From: a virus
Reading direction: 5' to 3' (one strand)
IMG/VR virus record: IMGVR_UViG_3300045988_108509
Span: 1-64,000 of that record
Length of the DNA stretch: 64,000 nt
Shown here: positions 5,649 to 32,080 of the stretch, piece after piece
Numbering within the stretch: position 1 is the first letter of the stretch
Layout of the letters: every line of letters begins with the position of its first letter
Program-made: the position numbers and the translations under genes
Notes under the pieces: generated by a model
The model's input: the letters and a program-made list of their open reading frames with translations, nothing else
Databases searched by the model: none
Told to the model about the DNA's origin: nothing

Positions 5649-5900
5649 ATGGAGAAAAGAGACAAGAAGATGCCTTACGAGGTAGTCATACAGGAAAGAA
5701 AAAGAGTGGATTTGTACGGTAACGTAGTGTATTATATCCATTGGTTTGATAAATATGGGTACAATATCACAAAAGAATGGAAATTCTGGAGCAAGGGCCC
5801 GAAAAAGAAATATGATAGAGTTAATCGTTATCTAACGGATAGTTGGCTGAAGGAATACTGTGGGAATAACAATTTAAAGATAAGTAGAATTAAGGAATGA
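5649..5900 (+). CDS. hypothetical protein (start moved to the ATG after SD AAAGGAGGA)
   Basis: ORF track 5589..5900. The internal Met MEKRDKK is preceded by a strong SD, and upstream of it lies the terminator. Confidence 0.5.
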   Translation: MEKRDKKMPYEVVIQERKRVDLYGNVVYYIHWFDKYGYNITKEWKFWSKGPKKKYDRVNRYLTDSWLKEYCGNNNLKISRIKE

Positions 5901-6418
5901 AAACGATAAAAGTAGACAAAGTGATATTATATTACATGGATCGGGTAGACCCTGACGGGAACTTATACCGGTTCTATGTGTATAAAGGAATGGCATCTGA
6001 AATAGAATACTTTTGCACGGAAGAGGCAGGTAATATGACTATACCAATCGGAGAAGGAAAGTATATTGAAATCATGCCAAAAGAAATAGAGAAAATACCA
6101 GTAAGGGGATACAGGAGGCTTGCTGGAATATGGAATCGTGAAACATGTAACGGGAAGGGATGGTATAGGCTTTTTAATTATTTCAAATACAAGCCAGACA
6201 TATGTTATATTAAAAACATAGGGCGTGATAAAAATGGAAACACAAGATATGAAATATCATTATTTAATGCCACTATGAATGTGACAAGGTATTTTAATCT
6301 GTGGAGAATGAAGCCAGGGAAGCATGTTATGATAACAAACGAGTACGGAGTCTTGGATATTATAAAAGAAAAATTCGATAACATAAATATAGTGGAATAT
6401 AGTGGAATATGGTTCTAA
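5897..6418 (+). CDS. hypothetical protein
   Basis: ORF track; 10-bp tandem duplication ATAGTGGAAT x2 at its 3' end. Confidence 0.5.
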   Translation: MKTIKVDKVILYYMDRVDPDGNLYRFYVYKGMASEIEYFCTEEAGNMTIPIGEGKYIEIMPKEIEKIPVRGYRRLAGIWNRETCNGKGWYRLFNYFKYKPDICYIKNIGRDKNGNTRYEISLFNATMNVTRYFNLWRMKPGKHVMITNEYGVLDIIKEKFDNINIVEYSGIWF

Positions 6419-6681
6419 ATAAATTGTATAAAGAAATAGAAGAAGCAGAGGCCAGTCTGAATGCAAAAAGATTAAAGTACATCAAAGAAGCATTAGCAGA
6501 AAACAATGGAATTATAAAGCTAAAATTTAAAGAGTTTAAAGAATTTAAAGAAACTAATGATGTATTTGACTTTGACGATCAGTTTCCGGTGGTAATAGAA
6601 ATTGATGAAAATCCTATGTATTTAACGGAAGTGTATGCCAAAAAAAAACGATTTTCGTGTAGTCATGCTGGATTATACTGA
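6409..6681 (+). CDS. hypothetical protein (KEFKEFKE repeat)
   Basis: ORF track. Confidence 0.45.
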   Translation: MVLNKLYKEIEEAEASLNAKRLKYIKEALAENNGIIKLKFKEFKEFKETNDVFDFDDQFPVVIEIDENPMYLTEVYAKKKRFSCSHAGLY

Positions 6682-6764
6682 TATGACTTTTTATGATTAT
6701 AGCAATCCAGGGGAAAATGAACAGGTTGCTTATTTTATTAACTATTGCTTAAATCAAGACAAAG

Positions 6765-6953
6765 ATGGGAAAGAGTAGAAAAGATTATGAGAAGTATCTT
6801 AACTCAATATCTCCAGATAGAGACGATGAGGCATGGATCATTGGAGGAAAGAACAGGTATTGCGGTAGAGAGAATTATGGCACTATGATCAAAAGGTATG
6901 ATCCTATTGGTTTTAATGTAGGATACAGAGAGTGGGCAGAACAGCCAGATTGA
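6765..6953 (+). CDS. hypothetical protein
   Basis: ORF track. Confidence 0.35.
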   Translation: MGKSRKDYEKYLNSISPDRDDEAWIIGGKNRYCGRENYGTMIKRYDPIGFNVGYREWAEQPD

Positions 6954-7100
6954 CATACTCCCATAGCTAAAGCAAATGGGATTCTTGGATGTAAACGGAT
7001 GGAACCCCTGCATTTCTGCAACCGGAATTACCCATACTCTCCAATAACAACTTTAAGGGAGAGGAACTTGATTATTATTATAAAATAACAGATTAATATT

Positions 7101-7385
7101 ATGACAGCAGCAGAAAAATTGCGTATGGAAATAGCGTAAGAAGCACCATTTAGTAAGGACGAATTTATTAGTAAAATCTCTCGTCTAATTAAGGCGTATG
7201 GATATGCAAGTTTTATTTGCGACAAGCATATTAGAGAAACCGATGTATCGCCTAACGGTAACACGATCCGTATGGCACATGAACAAGTGGCAATTGATTT
7301 TGCTCGTTCTGAGGGTTTCTCGGTATCATATAAACATAACAGTTATGGTGTTAGATACATAGTATTCACTTTGTGTAAAATATAA
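7101..7385 (+). pseudogene. 95-codon reading frame interrupted by a single in-frame TAA at 7137-7139 (MTAAEKLRMEIA-stop-EAPFSKDEF...FTLCKI); pseudogene or readthrough candidate
   Basis: Hand translation. The 81-codon downstream part has no ATG, GTG or TTG start of its own. The 430-bp region otherwise has no ORF. Confidence 0.3.
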
Positions 7386-7389
7386 AGAC

Positions 7390-8190
7390 ATGGAAGACAG
7401 ACTTATTACAACAAAAGAAGTAGGGAATTATCGTATAAAAATATACTATGATACTGACATGGAATGTCCTTGTAAAAGTTGGGATATGGCAGCATGTTTC
7501 TTATGGGAATATAGCGATTCATACCAACTGCAAGATGTGTGCGATTGGAGAGAAGTATTTGGTAAATACGGAGATGGTCGACACTCGCTTATAGATGCAC
7601 TACATAAACTTATTAGTGAATATGTTAAATGGAAAGACTTGCTGAATTATTTTAAGAAAGGCAAGATTGACGGTTATCGACTGAGATATGATAACCATGA
7701 TAAAATGTGGTATTATAAAGAAATTTTTAGCATTTCTCCATCAGATCTTTACACGTATGATTATACGTATGAATTTATAGAAGACTTAGGATGTGAAGAA
7801 TTGATTCAGATTCTTTCAGACTTAGGCAAGGATATATTTGTCAAAGAATGGTCCACAATAGGATACAGTCAAGGGGATTATGTTAAAGGTATAGCTTTAT
7901 GTACAAAGGAGAGGTACACAAAAATGGTTAGTAATAATACTTCCGATTGGAAAACCCAAATTGACAAATTGATTGATGATGAAGTGAAATACATAGGTAT
8001 GTGGATGTGGGGAGATGTAAAGGGGTATGTGCTTGAAAAGAAAGTGAAATTTGTCAAGAAATACAAAGATGAATCCAGGGAGGATGAAGAGGGAGAAGAA
8101 TGGGAAGAGGTTAATTCCTGTTGGGGTTATTATATGGAAACAGACGAATTGATAGAAGAAATAATGAAAGAACATAATCTGAAAGAATAA
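7390..8190 (+). CDS. hypothetical protein (266 aa)
   Basis: ORF track. Confidence 0.55.
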   Translation: MEDRLITTKEVGNYRIKIYYDTDMECPCKSWDMAACFLWEYSDSYQLQDVCDWREVFGKYGDGRHSLIDALHKLISEYVKWKDLLNYFKKGKIDGYRLRYDNHDKMWYYKEIFSISPSDLYTYDYTYEFIEDLGCEELIQILSDLGKDIFVKEWSTIGYSQGDYVKGIALCTKERYTKMVSNNTSDWKTQIDKLIDDEVKYIGMWMWGDVKGYVLEKKVKFVKKYKDESREDEEGEEWEEVNSCWGYYMETDELIEEIMKEHNLKE

Positions 8191-8211
8191 GGAGATGGAG
8201 AGATCACGGGG

Positions 8212-8400
8212 GTGTATTATCAGAAAGAACACCAAAGAATTACAAATAATACTGACTTAGGTCAATGGCTGATAGTGACGGACGCCACAGGAGACAGGTG
8301 GGTAAAGTGCGAAGAGCTCCGGTTCAGGGGAGACGGGGCCTGCTTTGCGTGGCGTAAGGCTACAGTAGATGAAATTGTTGAACATTTTAAAAGAAGATAA
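8212..8400 (+). CDS. hypothetical 62-aa ORF, GTG start; in frame with 7390..8190 across a single TAA
   Basis: ORF track; contains a GC-rich island; no ATG. Confidence 0.25.
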   Translation: MYYQKEHQRITNNTDLGQWLIVTDATGDRWVKCEELRFRGDGACFAWRKATVDEIVEHFKRR

Positions 8401-8402
8401 TT

Positions 8403-8816
8403 ATGGGATATATATGTACAAGATGTGGTGGAACAAAGGTTGTTTGTGAAGCCATAGTAAATCCGAATACCAGAGAAATAATAGATTATTTTGATGGATC
8501 TTTCGCGCATGCTATTTGCGGGGATTGTGAAAACGAGGTAATAATATCTAACGTTGAAGCAGTCAAACATGAAATTGATTTAAGATTTCATGAATTTGTA
8601 GAAAGAACAGGTAAGGAGCCTGAATATGTAGAATGTCAGATTGTGTGGAAAGAGACAGGAGATGAACAAAGAAAGACAATAAGACTATCGTTGAGCATCA
8701 ACGATGATGACAATGATGATGTTTTTTATTATTGCAATGGGATAGAATCGTTTAAGCAACTTGCTGAATACGGAATGGGAGAATTTATCGTAACATTTTG
8801 TTGGAGTTTCTTTTAA
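8403..8816 (+). CDS. zinc-ribbon hypothetical protein
   Basis: ORF track; CxxC...CxxC. Confidence 0.5.
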   Translation: MGYICTRCGGTKVVCEAIVNPNTREIIDYFDGSFAHAICGDCENEVIISNVEAVKHEIDLRFHEFVERTGKEPEYVECQIVWKETGDEQRKTIRLSLSINDDDNDDVFYYCNGIESFKQLAEYGMGEFIVTFCWSFF

Positions 8817-28711: not shown

Positions 28712-28909
28712 ATGGAAAAGAAGGAATTTAAAGTAGGAGAAGTATTTACTGCCGGACTTGTAAGATTAAAATGTGTGGAAGGTGATACATGCGATGGGTG
28801 TATATTCGAAGATTACGATTCTTGTTCATGTACAGACATAATTATTGGTCCATGTGGACATGTTGATAGACAAGATAACAAGAATGTTATTTTTATTAAA
28901 GCTGATTAA
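28712..28909 (+). CDS. small Cys-rich protein (third member of the 269/1689 family); SD AAGGAGGG
   Basis: ORF track; C-x-G-C-x-F...C-x-C pattern. Confidence 0.5.
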   Translation: MEKKEFKVGEVFTAGLVRLKCVEGDTCDGCIFEDYDSCSCTDIIIGPCGHVDRQDNKNVIFIKAD

Positions 28910-28911
28910 GA

Positions 28912-29625
28912 ATGTACATCAATTTCAGACAACTTGCAGCATCAGACATGACTCCTAATGATCTTGCCAATCTTCTTGCCATAAGACAGAAGGATTCGGT
29001 TATGATCGAAGCCATGCCGGAAGAAGATGCTGGGAGGTATATAGAGCTTGGCCTGGTTGAGAAATTAAAATCAGGCGTGATGAGATTGACCAACAAGGGA
29101 ACGTCTTTTGTAAATTATATAGAGACACCGGAAATGACAGACGAGGTTCTGGAAACGTTGAAGATTATGATAGGAATGTACGAATCATATTCAAAAGACA
29201 TAGGTGTCAGTAGAAAAGAAGCGGAATCCAGATTGTGTTGGTTTATGGGTAACACCTCATTCAAGAAAGAGGTCATACTTCAGGTAACGGAATCTTATAT
29301 AGCAGAGTCAGGAGATTATACAATGAGCTTATGTAACTTCATATGGAAACCGCCTTCTCAGGCTTTTTCAGTCCATATGAACCTTAAAAACTCAAAGCTC
29401 TTCGACTTAATAGCTGAAAAATTCAAGATCGCTACCAAGCCTTATTTGGAGTCTAAGAAGAATAAGGAAATGGATTGGTTGTTTGCCGTATCTAAATTGC
29501 CTACGCCGCCGGCTAAAGGCAATCCGGATTATTTGTTTACCGGAAGTTCTGAAACAGACAAAGAGAGATTGAAAAACATAAAAACGTATTTATTTAACAA
29601 AATTAGAAAGCAATGGAAAAAGTAG
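28912..29625 (+). CDS. hypothetical protein (237 aa)
   Basis: ORF track. Confidence 0.55.
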   Translation: MYINFRQLAASDMTPNDLANLLAIRQKDSVMIEAMPEEDAGRYIELGLVEKLKSGVMRLTNKGTSFVNYIETPEMTDEVLETLKIMIGMYESYSKDIGVSRKEAESRLCWFMGNTSFKKEVILQVTESYIAESGDYTMSLCNFIWKPPSQAFSVHMNLKNSKLFDLIAEKFKIATKPYLESKKNKEMDWLFAVSKLPTPPAKGNPDYLFTGSSETDKERLKNIKTYLFNKIRKQWKK

Positions 29626-29864
29626 AAATCAGAAAGATTATAGAGGATATAATTATTACTCAGTTTCTTAATTCGTAAATGGATATAGTTCATGAAGAAG
29701 ATGTGACGTTTAAAGAACTTGGATTAGATTCTCTTGATCAAATTGAACTGGAAATGATGGTGGAACAAAAATTAAATATTGTTATTATTGATTATGATAT
29801 GGAGACCATCAAAGATATGACTGATCTTGTTTACAAAATAATAACAGAAGGGTATGGGAAGTGA
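29613..29864 (+). pseudogene. acpP: acyl carrier protein homolog interrupted by an in-frame TAA (29676-29678) directly followed by ATG; DSL phosphopantetheine-site motif intact (ELGLDSLDQIELEMMVEQ)
   Basis: Hand translation 29613 onward gives MEKVEIRKIIEDIIITQFLNS-stop-MDIVHEEDVTFKELGLDSLDQIELEMM...EGYGK. It aligns end-to-end with a bacterial AcpP-like sequence. The ORF track shows only the 61-aa distal part. Confidence 0.6.
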
Positions 29865-30348
29865 CATAATTTTATGCATGGCTTTAATAGCGTCATTTGC
29901 TTTTGTTATACAGTTTTTGTTATCGATATTAGGATCTGATCTGGATACGGATATTGACATTGACAGTGCTTCTGATTTAAGCATGTCTTTGTCGGACATC
30001 ATATCATTCAAGGGCATAACACATTTTATTCTTGGATATAGCTGGACTACCTACTTTTCGGGTTCCCATTTAGTAGGGGTTGTGATAGGGTCGTTTTTCT
30101 TTATCGTTTTGTTTTACGTATATAAGTTACTTCTTAAGTTAAAGCAAGAAATGGTGTACGAATGTCCGGAAGATTTAAATGGAAGAGAAGTGGAGATAGT
30201 GTTTAGATCAGGGAAGAATCATTATATGGTAAATATTTCGAAAAATGGAAGACAGGAGCAAATGAGAGTAAGATGCTTGTCTGGAAAAACCTACAAAAAC
30301 GGTGACAAGGTGAATATAAAATATGAAGAAGGAGAATTAAGTATCTAA
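29854..30348 (+). CDS. NfeD-like membrane protein (3 TM helices + C-terminal OB/beta-barrel domain)
   Basis: Topology and C-terminal G..V.V..G....V.V.G pattern are typical of NfeD/YuaF. It sits immediately upstream of a flotillin gene, as in yuaF-floT operons. Confidence 0.6.
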   Translation: MGSDIILCMALIASFAFVIQFLLSILGSDLDTDIDIDSASDLSMSLSDIISFKGITHFILGYSWTTYFSGSHLVGVVIGSFFFIVLFYVYKLLLKLKQEMVYECPEDLNGREVEIVFRSGKNHYMVNISKNGRQEQMRVRCLSGKTYKNGDKVNIKYEEGELSI

Positions 30349-30379
30349 TTTTTTTATCAACAATTAAATTTTAAAAGTT

Positions 30380-32080
30380 ATGACAACAATCATGTACGTG
30401 TCAGCTATCTTAGCTGTAGTGATTATTTTGACAATCATCGGAGTCTTATCAAGGTATCGTAGATGTAAGCCTAATCAGGTCTTGGTCGTTTACGGTAAGA
30501 CAGGTGGGGAAAAGAAATCGGCGAAATTATATCATGGTGGAGCGGCATTTGTCTTGCCTATTATTCAAAGCTATGATGTTTTGTCAATGGAGCCTATGCA
30601 AATAGATTGCAAGCTTACCGGTGCTTTGTCATCTCAGAATATTAGAGTAGATGTACCTACGACCATTACAGTAGCTATCAGTACAAATCCCGAAATCATG
30701 CAAAATGCGGCAGAAAGACTTTTGGGGATGGATACCGAATCTACTGAAAATCTTATTACGGACATCGTTTACGGTCAGATGCGTTTGATTATTGCTGAAA
30801 TGACAATCGAAAAACTTAATTCTGACAGGGATGAGTTTTTGGATAAGGCGAGAAAGAACATTGATAACGAGCTTAACAAGTTAGGTCTTTACCTCCTGAA
30901 CATCAACATCAGTGACATCAGAGATGAAGCCGGTTATATTATGAACCTTGGTAAGGAAGCTGAAAGTAGGGCTCTGAACGAGGCACAGGCTAATATCGAA
31001 GAACAGGAGAAGCTGGGTGCTATTAAAATTGCTGTACAGCAGAAGGAAAAAGAAACGGCTGTGGCTAATACCAAAAAAGAACAAGAGATTCAAATTGCTT
31101 GTACTGAAAAAGAAAAGGAGACAATAGTAGCTGAAACGAAGAAAGAAAAAGAAATAGCTTTAGCTTTAACCGATAAAGAGAAACAGATCGGTGTAGCCCA
31201 AGCAGATAGAGACAGGGCTGCGGTTATCGCAAAAACTTTAACCGACAAGGAATCGGCGATCGTAAGATCTAAGGCAGAACTTGAAGTAAATAAAGCCGAG
31301 GCTGAAAGAATGGAAGAAGTCGGAAAGAATAAGGCTGAAGCTGACAAGGAAGCAGCTATAGCAATACAAGACTCTGAAGCTCAGATTAAGAAGGCTGAGG
31401 CTGAGAAAAATGCGTCTATAGGATACAACAATGCCCAGAAGGAGGTTGCTGTGTCAGTATCAGAACTACAGATCATCAAAGCTCAATCAGAGAAGAAGGC
31501 CGGAGAAGAAAAAGTTAAATCGGAAGCGGCTGTAAAAACAGCAAAAGAGCTTGCCGAAAAAGAAGTGGAAGAAGCTAAAGCTAAGAAAGTTCAGGCTGCG
31601 CTTAAGGCTGAAAAGATTGTGCCGGCTGAAATTCAGAAACAGGAGGCTATGTTGCAAGCTGATGCTGAAGCTGAGAAGATCAAACGCCGGGCTGAGGCTG
31701 AGGCATCAGCACATTTGGCAAAAGCTGAGGCAGAGGCAAAAGCTATTCAGATGAAGCTGGAGGCAGAAGCCGAAGGTAAGAAAAAGTCGTTAATGGCAGA
31801 AGCCGACGGATTTAAGGCTATGGTGGAAGCAGCAGAATCCAATCCTCAGATCGCCATCCAGTACAAGATGGTTAATCAGTGGAAAGAAATTGCTGGAGAA
31901 CAGGTTAAAGCATTTGAGCACATTAATCTCGGAAATATCACGGTATTTGACGGCGGTCAGAACAGTACCGGTAATTTCCTTAACAATGTTGTCAAGACCG
32001 TCGCTCCGGCATTGGGAGTCATTGATCAGCTTCCGATTGCAGATACTTTAAAGAAATTAAAAGGAGATGACAAAAAATAA
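30380..32080 (+). CDS. floT: flotillin-like SPFH/Band-7 protein with N-terminal membrane anchor and AEAEA (EA-repeat) coiled-coil region
   Basis: N-terminal TM, SPFH-type core, long Ala/Glu heptad region with repeated AEAEA motifs, C-terminal flotillin-type tail; 566 aa. Confidence 0.8.
   Translation: MTTIMYVSAILAVVIILTIIGVLSRYRRCKPNQVLVVYGKTGGEKKSAKLYHGGAAFVLPIIQSYDVLSMEPMQIDCKLTGALSSQNIRVDVPTTITVAISTNPEIMQNAAERLLGMDTESTENLITDIVYGQMRLIIAEMTIEKLNSDRDEFLDKARKNIDNELNKLGLYLLNINISDIRDEAGYIMNLGKEAESRALNEAQANIEEQEKLGAIKIAVQQKEKETAVANTKKEQEIQIACTEKEKETIVAETKKEKEIALALTDKEKQIGVAQADRDRAAVIAKTLTDKESAIVRSKAELEVNKAEAERMEEVGKNKAEADKEAAIAIQDSEAQIKKAEAEKNASIGYNNAQKEVAVSVSELQIIKAQSEKKAGEEKVKSEAAVKTAKELAEKEVEEAKAKKVQAALKAEKIVPAEIQKQEAMLQADAEAEKIKRRAEAEASAHLAKAEAEAKAIQMKLEAEAEGKKKSLMAEADGFKAMVEAAESNPQIAIQYKMVNQWKEIAGEQVKAFEHINLGNITVFDGGQNSTGNFLNNVVKTVAPALGVIDQLPIADTLKKLKGDDKK

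Follow-up and report, generated by a model that had tools for sequence, protein, structure and literature searches.

The locus considered here raises a simple question: when an in-frame TAA falls inside a phage gene for an acyl carrier protein (ACP) and an ATG follows it at once, is the gene dead, is the stop decoded as sense, or is the protein made in two pieces? The locus lies in a 64,000-nt stretch of viral DNA (positions 1 to 64,000 of the IMG/VR record IMGVR_UViG_3300045988_108509), called the window below, and the three possibilities are those listed in an earlier note on this DNA, namely a pseudogene, readthrough or recoding of the TAA, and a split ACP re-initiated at the adjacent ATG. 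We find it very probable that the TAA is a real and recent nonsense mutation, E22* (the asterisk marking a stop), in an ACP gene that is intact elsewhere, and that the allele is a segregating null of a conditionally dispensable accessory gene. Thus, the pseudogene alternative is sustained by intact relatives and by many further lesions, whereas recoding is contradicted by the use of TAA as the main terminator and a conserved split by the lack of conservation of the junction.

The interrupted reading frame comprises the following elements.

29613..29678, + strand: 5' remnant of the ACP gene, from its ATG through 21 sense codons (MEKVEIRKIIEDIIITQFLNS) to the premature stop, as read from the open reading frame (ORF)
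29676..29678, + strand: premature ochre codon TAA, E22* (GAA to TAA), the nearest relatives having TCG GAA at this place
29679..29864, + strand: ORF of 61 codons, whose ATG lies directly 3' of the stop and which ends at the TGA 29862-29864
29730..29732, + strand: Ser40 (TCT) of LGLDSLD, the predicted phosphopantetheine serine at the N terminus of helix II, placed by ACP alignment and model

The sequence reads exactly as the earlier note had described it, with the ATG at 29613, the TAA, and the second ATG in immediate succession, so that stop and start together form TAAATG at 29676-29681. The translation of the 61-codon ORF, MDIVHEEDVTFKELGLDSLDQIELEMM...GYGK, covers the ACP loop and helices II to IV, including the DSL motif, and matches the Pfam PP-binding family (PF00550) at 25.7 bits (E 1.4e-5) against a gathering score of 20.8, a threshold that the stop-masked 83-aa form and the 61-aa form pass alike (25.6 to 25.7 bits). 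The homology had been said to continue across the stop, and the profile alignments run with the stop masked agree: the repaired 83-aa sequence, with Glu at codon 22, aligns over residues 14 to 73 with the Plasmodium falciparum ACP 3gzl (E 6.5e-6), the NCBIfam ACP models cover residues 5 to 76, and the best PHROG match, PHROG 5934 "acyl carrier protein," extends over residues 5 to 75 (E 2.9e-9). The top PDB matches are ACP chains, and Ser40 coincides with the DSL serine of the 3gzl and 7ar9 ACPs ("kelgldsldqiel" versus "KDLGADSLDLVEL"). The cutoffs of the AcpP equivalog models (TIGR00517 and NF002148-51) are all missed, the best NCBIfam score being 33.5 versus 71 bits and that of TIGR00517 29.8 versus 70.45 bits. 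Judging from its sequence, the protein is best described as a divergent type II ACP-like phage carrier and not as an AcpP orthologue.

The AlphaFold model of the intact allele, which is of low confidence (predicted local distance difference test [pLDDT], 65.7), places helices at residues 3 to 22, 33 to 36, 40 to 54, and 63 to 79, and a Foldseek search of this model against the PDB returned no match with an E value below 1. Since the first helix is predicted to span residues 3 to 22, the stop would fall exactly at the end of helix I, in agreement with the earlier suggestion that a product without the first 21 residues loses that helix. In the window, where the frame is cut after residue 21, the four helices predicted for the intact relatives are not available as a single polypeptide.

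The source phage is an epsilon-type crAss-like human-gut phage close to csAssE-Sib (OR575929.1), a human-gut phage of 151 kb that encodes crAss-type ring and muzzle proteins as well as a diversity-generating retroelement (DGR); the window is 91 to 98% identical to it (98.3% over 1.5 kb at the ACP locus). In csAssE-Sib the same locus, between a 237-aa gene and a membrane-protein/flotillin pair, holds an intact 83-codon coding sequence (CDS) annotated as "acyl carrier protein" (WOZ57347.1), with GAA at codon 22. The two copies are 97.6% identical over 252 nt, codons 1 to 21 of the window gene are those of the intact csAssE-Sib gene, and the proteins differ at codon 22 and by L54F and I76T. Codons 21 to 23 read TCA GAA ATG in csAssE-Sib and TCG TAA ATG in the window, whose TAA, unlike the GAA of csAssE-Sib, makes an 83-residue protein impossible under the standard code. 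TCG is the commoner synonymous state of codon 21 (79 of 111 haplotypes), and because the nearest relatives read TCG GAA, E22* amounts to one G-to-T transversion.

The ancestral state of codon 22 is apparent also from the wider comparison. Across the IMG/VR haplotypes GAA stands at this codon in 104 of 111 and TAA in 1 of 111; at codon 23, 50 of the 111 have ATG and 57 have ATA. On 143 public contigs the encoded protein is precisely the repaired 83-aa sequence, which the window frame matches at every residue except the stop, so that the frame is no chance resemblance; at least 1000 contigs encode a variant with one residue changed, and the exact 61-aa product is called on 11 to 17. Of the 956 homologs returned by a protein search, 120 were listed, almost all of them with a length of 83 aa; orthologues carry the annotation "acyl carrier protein" or "DUF1493" in JGI and NCBI records. 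The earlier note had reasoned that naturally short homologs starting at the second Met would undo its reading; the homologs are overwhelmingly of 83 aa. This length, together with the conservation of helix I and the lack of conservation at codon 23, leads us to reject a naturally short ACP beginning at Met23.

The TAA allele does not stand by itself. Because a look-up of the exact 61-aa product is biased, in that it sees N-terminal lesions only, we built an unbiased sample from 80 IMG/VR loci recovered through the downstream gene and 119 recovered by means of a 24-nt anchor immediately 5' of the ATG, which were pooled into 112 unique haplotypes of a 1436-nt segment reaching from the upstream gene to the downstream gene (L-numbers denote relatives' loci compared with the window). 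Of these haplotypes, 11 of 112 have a disrupted ACP gene and 0 of 112 a disrupted upstream 714-nt gene (Fisher P = 0.00075). The nonsense lesions of this sample are E22* (TCA TAA), R43* (TGA), and Q52* (TAA), the last on two backgrounds; the indels are a 4-nt duplication, a 41-nt deletion, and two 1-nt frameshifts; and three large deletions remove the ACP and the membrane protein or the entire ACP/membrane-protein/flotillin cluster. Codons 1 to 22 hold one of the eight small lesions, and the others destroy helices II to IV. Only one frameshifted copy of flotillin (1461 nt) occurs in the first 80 loci, and the ACP lesion rate per nucleotide is about 30 times that of flotillin or of the upstream gene.

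Further alleles come from the look-ups. The exact 61-aa product of the window was found on 17 contigs, which, besides the TAA allele, show Q17* (CAG to TAG; L010), a start loss (ATG to ACG; L008/L011), and truncations at contig ends. The 61-aa product of the other common background, found on 25 contigs, one of them deposited as DAT73405.1, adds deletions of 20 nt and 2 nt, an A5-to-A4 frameshift, and E11* (TAG), together with Q17* on three further backgrounds and E22* twice. Altogether at least 15 distinct lesion types are known, including nonsense mutations at codons 11, 17, 22, 43, and 52, and some recur, E22* on at least three backgrounds, Q17* on at least four, and Q52* on two. Near-identical loci carry different lesions: the nearest relative of the window, L010, differs from it at 6 positions in 1185 flanking nt and has Q17* instead of E22*; L008 and L057, with 3 to 7 differences, have a start loss and Q52*, respectively; and L215, L216, and L221, with identical 701-nt flanks, together with L219, with 1 difference, have four different lesions.

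Some regularities that the lesions might seem to follow were considered and rejected. A confinement to the N terminus is an effect of the biased 61-aa look-up, as the unbiased surveys show lesions along the entire gene. Mutagenesis by the DGR does not account for the changes, since in csAssE-Sib the DGR target is in a distant tail-fibre gene and the ACP changes are not adenine specific, the substitutions being G-to-T, C-to-T, and T-to-C, in addition to indels. Phase variation at homopolymers is equally unsuitable, as just A5 runs are involved, in three frameshifts, and these are too short for a contingency locus.

Public variants of the 83-aa ACP (proteins P0003, P0018, and P0027) include S40P, S40F, and S40Y at the prosthetic-group serine, and others place prolines in helices (L41P, L46P, and L72P). 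Both kinds would be missense knock-outs beside the nonsense ones, some of the single-contig variants being perhaps assembly errors.

Selection on the gene was examined through the ratio of nonsynonymous to synonymous nucleotide diversity (piN/piS), computed on 86 intact, collinear haplotypes, and through the number of distinct variants relative to the opportunities for them.

Upstream 237-aa gene: piN/piS 0.047
Downstream membrane protein: piN/piS 0.066
ACP, whole: piN/piS 0.366
ACP, codons 6-21 (helix I): piN/piS 0.040
ACP, codons 23-80: piN/piS 0.475
ACP, distinct variants per opportunities: nonsense 3/27, synonymous 16/126
Upstream gene, distinct variants per opportunities: nonsense 0/119, synonymous 106/422

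On the time scale of the sample, ACP null alleles thus survive about as readily as silent changes. We regard the gene as a conditionally dispensable accessory because its nulls survive in this way and yet stay rare, with an intact form of conserved helix I prevailing. As a separate observation, codons 40 to 50 of helix II (29730-29760) are the most variable in intact alleles and follow the pattern DS[L/V/I]D[Q/R/K][I/V]EL[E/D][M/V/A]M. Helix II is the usual partner-recognition helix of ACPs, and its variability could reflect either relaxed constraint or adaptation to different host enzymes.

It is possible to outline what the allele would do. Translation from the ATG at 29613 would stop after a 21-residue helix-I peptide, and some ribosomes would probably restart at the ATG 29679 to give a 61-residue fragment with the DSL serine and no helix I, a restart made plausible by the adjacency in TAAATG and by the fact that overlapped or coupled genes are usual in this operon (overlaps of 11 to 13 nt). 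Helix I is part of the hydrophobic core of ACPs and is also the most constrained segment here, for which reason the fragment is expected to be nonfunctional or strongly impaired; it is unlikely to form the four-helix bundle, and the allele would be null or strongly hypomorphic. The phage would tolerate the loss, the ACP being an accessory gene of the "moron" or auxiliary metabolic gene (AMG) type that is dispensable under some conditions, and null alleles would keep appearing and survive, at low frequency, on the terminal branches of the phylogeny, with the intact allele dominating in the long term.

Several points weigh against this account. Purifying selection acts strongly on helix I of intact alleles (piN/piS, 0.04), and the truncated alleles are far outnumbered by the intact one (11 to 25 contigs for truncated products versus at least 1000 and 143); this constraint and this prevalence show the gene to be plainly useful under most circumstances, and for that reason we consider it dispensable only conditionally. 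Furthermore, the lack of function of the 61-aa fragment is expected from the general structure of ACPs, the model being of low confidence and the fold search uninformative. The TAA allele is known from assemblies, and two contigs that match the window at 100% identity, L009 and L267, are perhaps re-assemblies of the same or related samples and not independent. Moreover, the second tRNA cluster of the TAA strain (Tyr and Lys in csAssE-Sib), about 15 kb past the window end, lies outside the tRNA scan described below.

The recoding of TAA was addressed by projecting 88 csAssE-Sib CDSs onto the window. These CDSs terminate with TAA in 49 cases, with TGA in 27, and with TAG in 12, and the sole truly internal new stop in the projection is the ACP TAA. 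The four other new stops, three TAA and one TAG, are all in the last 11% of their CDS, the three TAA within 4 codons of the annotated end and the TAG at codon 265 of 298. Read with the standard code, the long ORFs (2140, 1153, and 752 aa) are uninterrupted. Two further in-frame TAAs pointed out in the earlier note had different outcomes. The one at 7137 is indeed a second premature stop, a CAA-to-TAA change at codon 13 (Q13*; 7137-7139) of a 94-aa hypothetical gene (7101-7385; MTAAEKLRMEIA*EAPFSKDEF...) in a segment that csAssE-Sib lacks; there the codon is CAA in 11 of 11 aligning IMG/VR relatives and TAA also in L267. The one at 8188-8190 is an ordinary gene end, namely the normal stop of a 266-aa gene (7390-8190) that is TAA in 23 and TGA in 5 of 28 aligning relatives, and the ORF 8212-8400 shares its frame by chance. 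A pair of ochre mutations, each in a small accessory gene, does not amount to a changed code, and the genetic code of the phage is standard.

The tRNA complement agrees with this. A tRNA scan of the 64-kb window found none, and neither the window nor the whole of csAssE-Sib nor the 10 kb that precede the window in the same strain encode a tRNA with anticodon UUA, CUA, or UCA. The tRNAs of csAssE-Sib are Cys-GCA, Arg-CCU, Gln-UUG, Met-CAU, Tyr-GUA, and Lys-UUU only, and the upstream 10 kb of the same strain holds tRNAs for Met, Gln-UUG, Arg, and Cys.

Other explanations of the TAA can now be weighed. That it is a sequencing or assembly error, the true codon being GAA, would be suggested by the one-base difference from the nearest relatives and by its occurrence in assemblies only; this is extremely improbable, as the identical allele is present in L009 (ERZ1689345, 154,783 bp, assembled with SPAdes at 22x coverage), which agrees with the window at 100% identity over 6186 nt, and the same strain was recovered by another assembler in ERZ27334107 (100% identity over 11,420 nt). 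E22* is found, in addition, on the diverged backgrounds L058/L106, L220, and L224, which come from other IMG/VR, JGI, and ENA samples and differ from each other and from the window at 9 to 19 positions in 701 nt, and the many other lesions of the gene lie in other assemblies. We hold it to be very unlikely, too, that the TAA is read through or recoded and a full-length ACP still made. Some crAss-like lineages reassign stop codons (TAG to Gln and TGA to Trp), and the window resembles such gut phages in having, in a crAss-like phage, an in-frame stop where relatives have a sense codon; the second premature TAA at 7137 and the phage tRNAs Gln(UUG), Lys(UUU), and Tyr(GUA), near-cognate to UAA, point the same way. 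However, the hallmarks of reassignment are many in-frame stops of one type, avoidance of the codon as a terminator, and usually a suppressor tRNA, and the window differs from reassigned phages in showing neither multiple in-frame stops nor terminator avoidance nor a suppressor tRNA: TAA is the most used terminator, the 64 kb hold just two internal TAAs, each of them in a small accessory gene and neither in the three long ORFs, and UUA, CUA, and UCA anticodons are missing from the sequences surveyed, on which grounds we reject TAA recoding or a suppressor tRNA. A stop codon followed by A, as in TAAA, is not notably leaky in bacterial termination, we know of no TAA reassignment described in phages, and the TAG and TGA codons, frameshifts, deletions, and start loss of the relatives are beyond rescue by readthrough.

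The arrangement of the junction lends itself to a different proposal, namely that TAAATG yields a working ACP, either as a 61-residue reinitiated carrier or as a non-covalent assembly of the 21- and 61-residue pieces. Stop and start are directly adjacent, coupled translation with overlaps of 11 to 13 nt is the local norm, the cut is exactly at the predicted end of helix I, the 61-aa ORF retains the DSL serine and passes the Pfam threshold, and on all of the at least three backgrounds with E22* codon 23 is ATG. This last association is partly built in, because the search that yielded two of the three other E22* carriers was for a product that must start at Met23. Furthermore, the junction is not conserved, codon 22 being GAA in nearly all haplotypes and codon 23 more often ATA than ATG; seven of the eight small lesions of the unbiased sample destroy helices II to IV; start loss, frameshifts, and the 20-nt deletion cannot give a helix-I peptide; and no part of the intact protein is more constrained than helix I. 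A working product is thus improbable in our estimation, and a deliberate or conserved design of split or short ACP appears unlikely from the sequence comparisons. Somewhat less improbable, although still doubtful, is the hypothesis of positive selection for ACP loss in some hosts or conditions, for example because the protein is toxic or sensed by a host defence, with E22* as one of many escape knock-outs. It would fit the many independent lesions, often on near-identical backgrounds (L215/L216/L221/L219, the window and L010 with 4 to 6 differences, and L008 and L057), the recurrence of the same nonsense mutations, a nonsense saturation about equal to the synonymous one, the three substitutions at S40, and the roughly 30-fold lesion excess per nucleotide over flotillin and the upstream gene. 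However, every lesion is rare and at the tips, intact alleles dominate, helix I is under strong long-term purifying selection, and no host, defence system, or phenotype is known; moreover, since the look-ups select carriers from among thousands of sampled genomes, clusters of lesions are expected also under mutation-selection balance. A variant, to which we likewise give a low probability, is that the ACP pays off only in certain Bacteroidales hosts and that the restart at TAAATG keeps translation going into the overlapping membrane-protein and flotillin genes. Adaptive loss is not required by the data, and we retain the recent null of a conditionally dispensable gene as the explanation of E22*.

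The genes on either side of the ACP are the following.

28912..29625, + strand: upstream 237-aa gene (714 nt), an ORF, the control gene, whose last 13 nt are overlapped by the ACP start at ATG 29613
29854..30348, + strand: downstream 164-aa membrane protein, "transmembrane protein" in csAssE-Sib, whose ATG overlaps the 3' end of the ACP gene by 11 nt
30380..32080, + strand: 566-aa protein of the SPFH/flotillin family (Pfam), the last gene of the ACP/membrane-protein/flotillin cluster

Neither the 237-aa nor the 164-aa protein has a Pfam, PHROG, or NCBIfam match. For the 164-aa membrane protein a single-sequence model (pLDDT, 53) predicts three helices followed by a C-terminal beta-rich domain, an architecture that may be NfeD-like, an assignment that is ours and not an established one. 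The 566-aa protein matches Pfam Band_7 (E 7.6e-26) and Flot (E 1.3e-9) and, below cutoff, the NCBIfam FloT-like model (E 2.6e-42). No phosphopantetheinyl transferase or fatty-acid-synthesis partner is recognized in the csAssE-Sib annotation.

The ACP, membrane-protein, and flotillin genes (29613-32080) behave as one dispensable cluster and are co-deleted in some relatives. The deletion of L148 begins at ACP codon 17 and extends as far as the last 8 codons of flotillin, that of L112/L207 runs from ACP codon 9 into the membrane protein, and that of L159 from the membrane protein into flotillin with the ACP intact; in L222 flotillin is lost and the ACP carries Q17*. About 11 of 80 relatives (L017, L026, L050, L051, L059, L064, L071, L072, L077, L085, and L090) align with the flotillin gene at the DNA level over no more than a 20-nt patch, and in them a divergent SPFH gene of about 503 to 507 aa fills the flotillin slot, as in L012/L013. 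Within the first 80 loci, no correlation was seen between ACP lesions and the divergent type of flotillin.

Farther upstream, a 65-aa gene (28712-28909) shows in-frame length variants among relatives and was therefore unused as a control; internal stops occur in it in L097 alone. L097 (IMGVR_UViG_3300000278_000002) also has a TnpB/IS605-OrfB-like coding sequence (…CPRCGSVNDRDLLAS) that replaces the end of a 251-aa gene and sits upstream of the homolog of that 65-aa gene, and csAssE-Sib carries two TnpB genes elsewhere.

At the scale of the whole window, the relation to csAssE-Sib is mosaic. About 20 CDSs of csAssE-Sib have no DNA match in the window (e.g., those at 113296-114423 and 137063-138706 of csAssE-Sib), among them a cytosine-5 DNA methyltransferase and a poly(A) polymerase/CCA-adding enzyme. 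Conversely, about 2.57 kb of the window (6064-8630) with several small genes is absent from csAssE-Sib and splits the homolog of its gene WOZ57391.1 into 5897-6064 and 8630-8816, which from the sequence looks like the insertion or replacement of a gene cassette. At the start of the window, positions 34-103 and 91-154 both match, with overlap, csAssE-Sib 150547-150669, and the identity with the same-strain contig L267 breaks before position 96, an arrangement that suggests a short tandem or terminal repeat.

As regards the meaning of these results, the site should be annotated as a nonsense allele or pseudogene, and it provides no evidence for TAA recoding in crAss-like phages. Database entries for a 61-aa "acyl carrier protein," such as DAT73405.1, are fragments of an 83-aa gene. 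Moreover, a very prevalent human-gut phage is seen to carry, beside a flotillin-type cluster, an ACP that is knocked out in about 10% of distinct haplotypes while its neighbors are spared, and the natural null alleles form a ready set for asking what phage ACPs do, which we consider of modest use and not surprising. Nonsense mutations of accessory genes are a familiar kind of event; the only mildly unusual features are the frequency and parallelism of the inactivation.

Phage ACPs are barely studied. A predicted contact of a phage ACP with host FabZ is mentioned in passing in a preprint (10.64898/2026.03.01.708874), and the literature that we searched held nothing on csAssE-Sib, on ACPs of crAss-like phages, on flotillin in epsilon crAss-like phages, on a link between ACP and flotillin clusters, or on recurrent ACP inactivation. 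Compared with known carriers, the window ACP shares with the bacterial and organellar type II ACPs (AcpP, PF00550, and 3gzl) the DSL serine at the start of helix II, a length of about 80 residues, and four predicted helices and, unlike type II AcpP, scores far under the equivalog cutoffs and is interrupted. With the "moron" or AMG-type phage ACPs of PHROG 5934 it has in common that it is a small accessory gene in the early/replication region.

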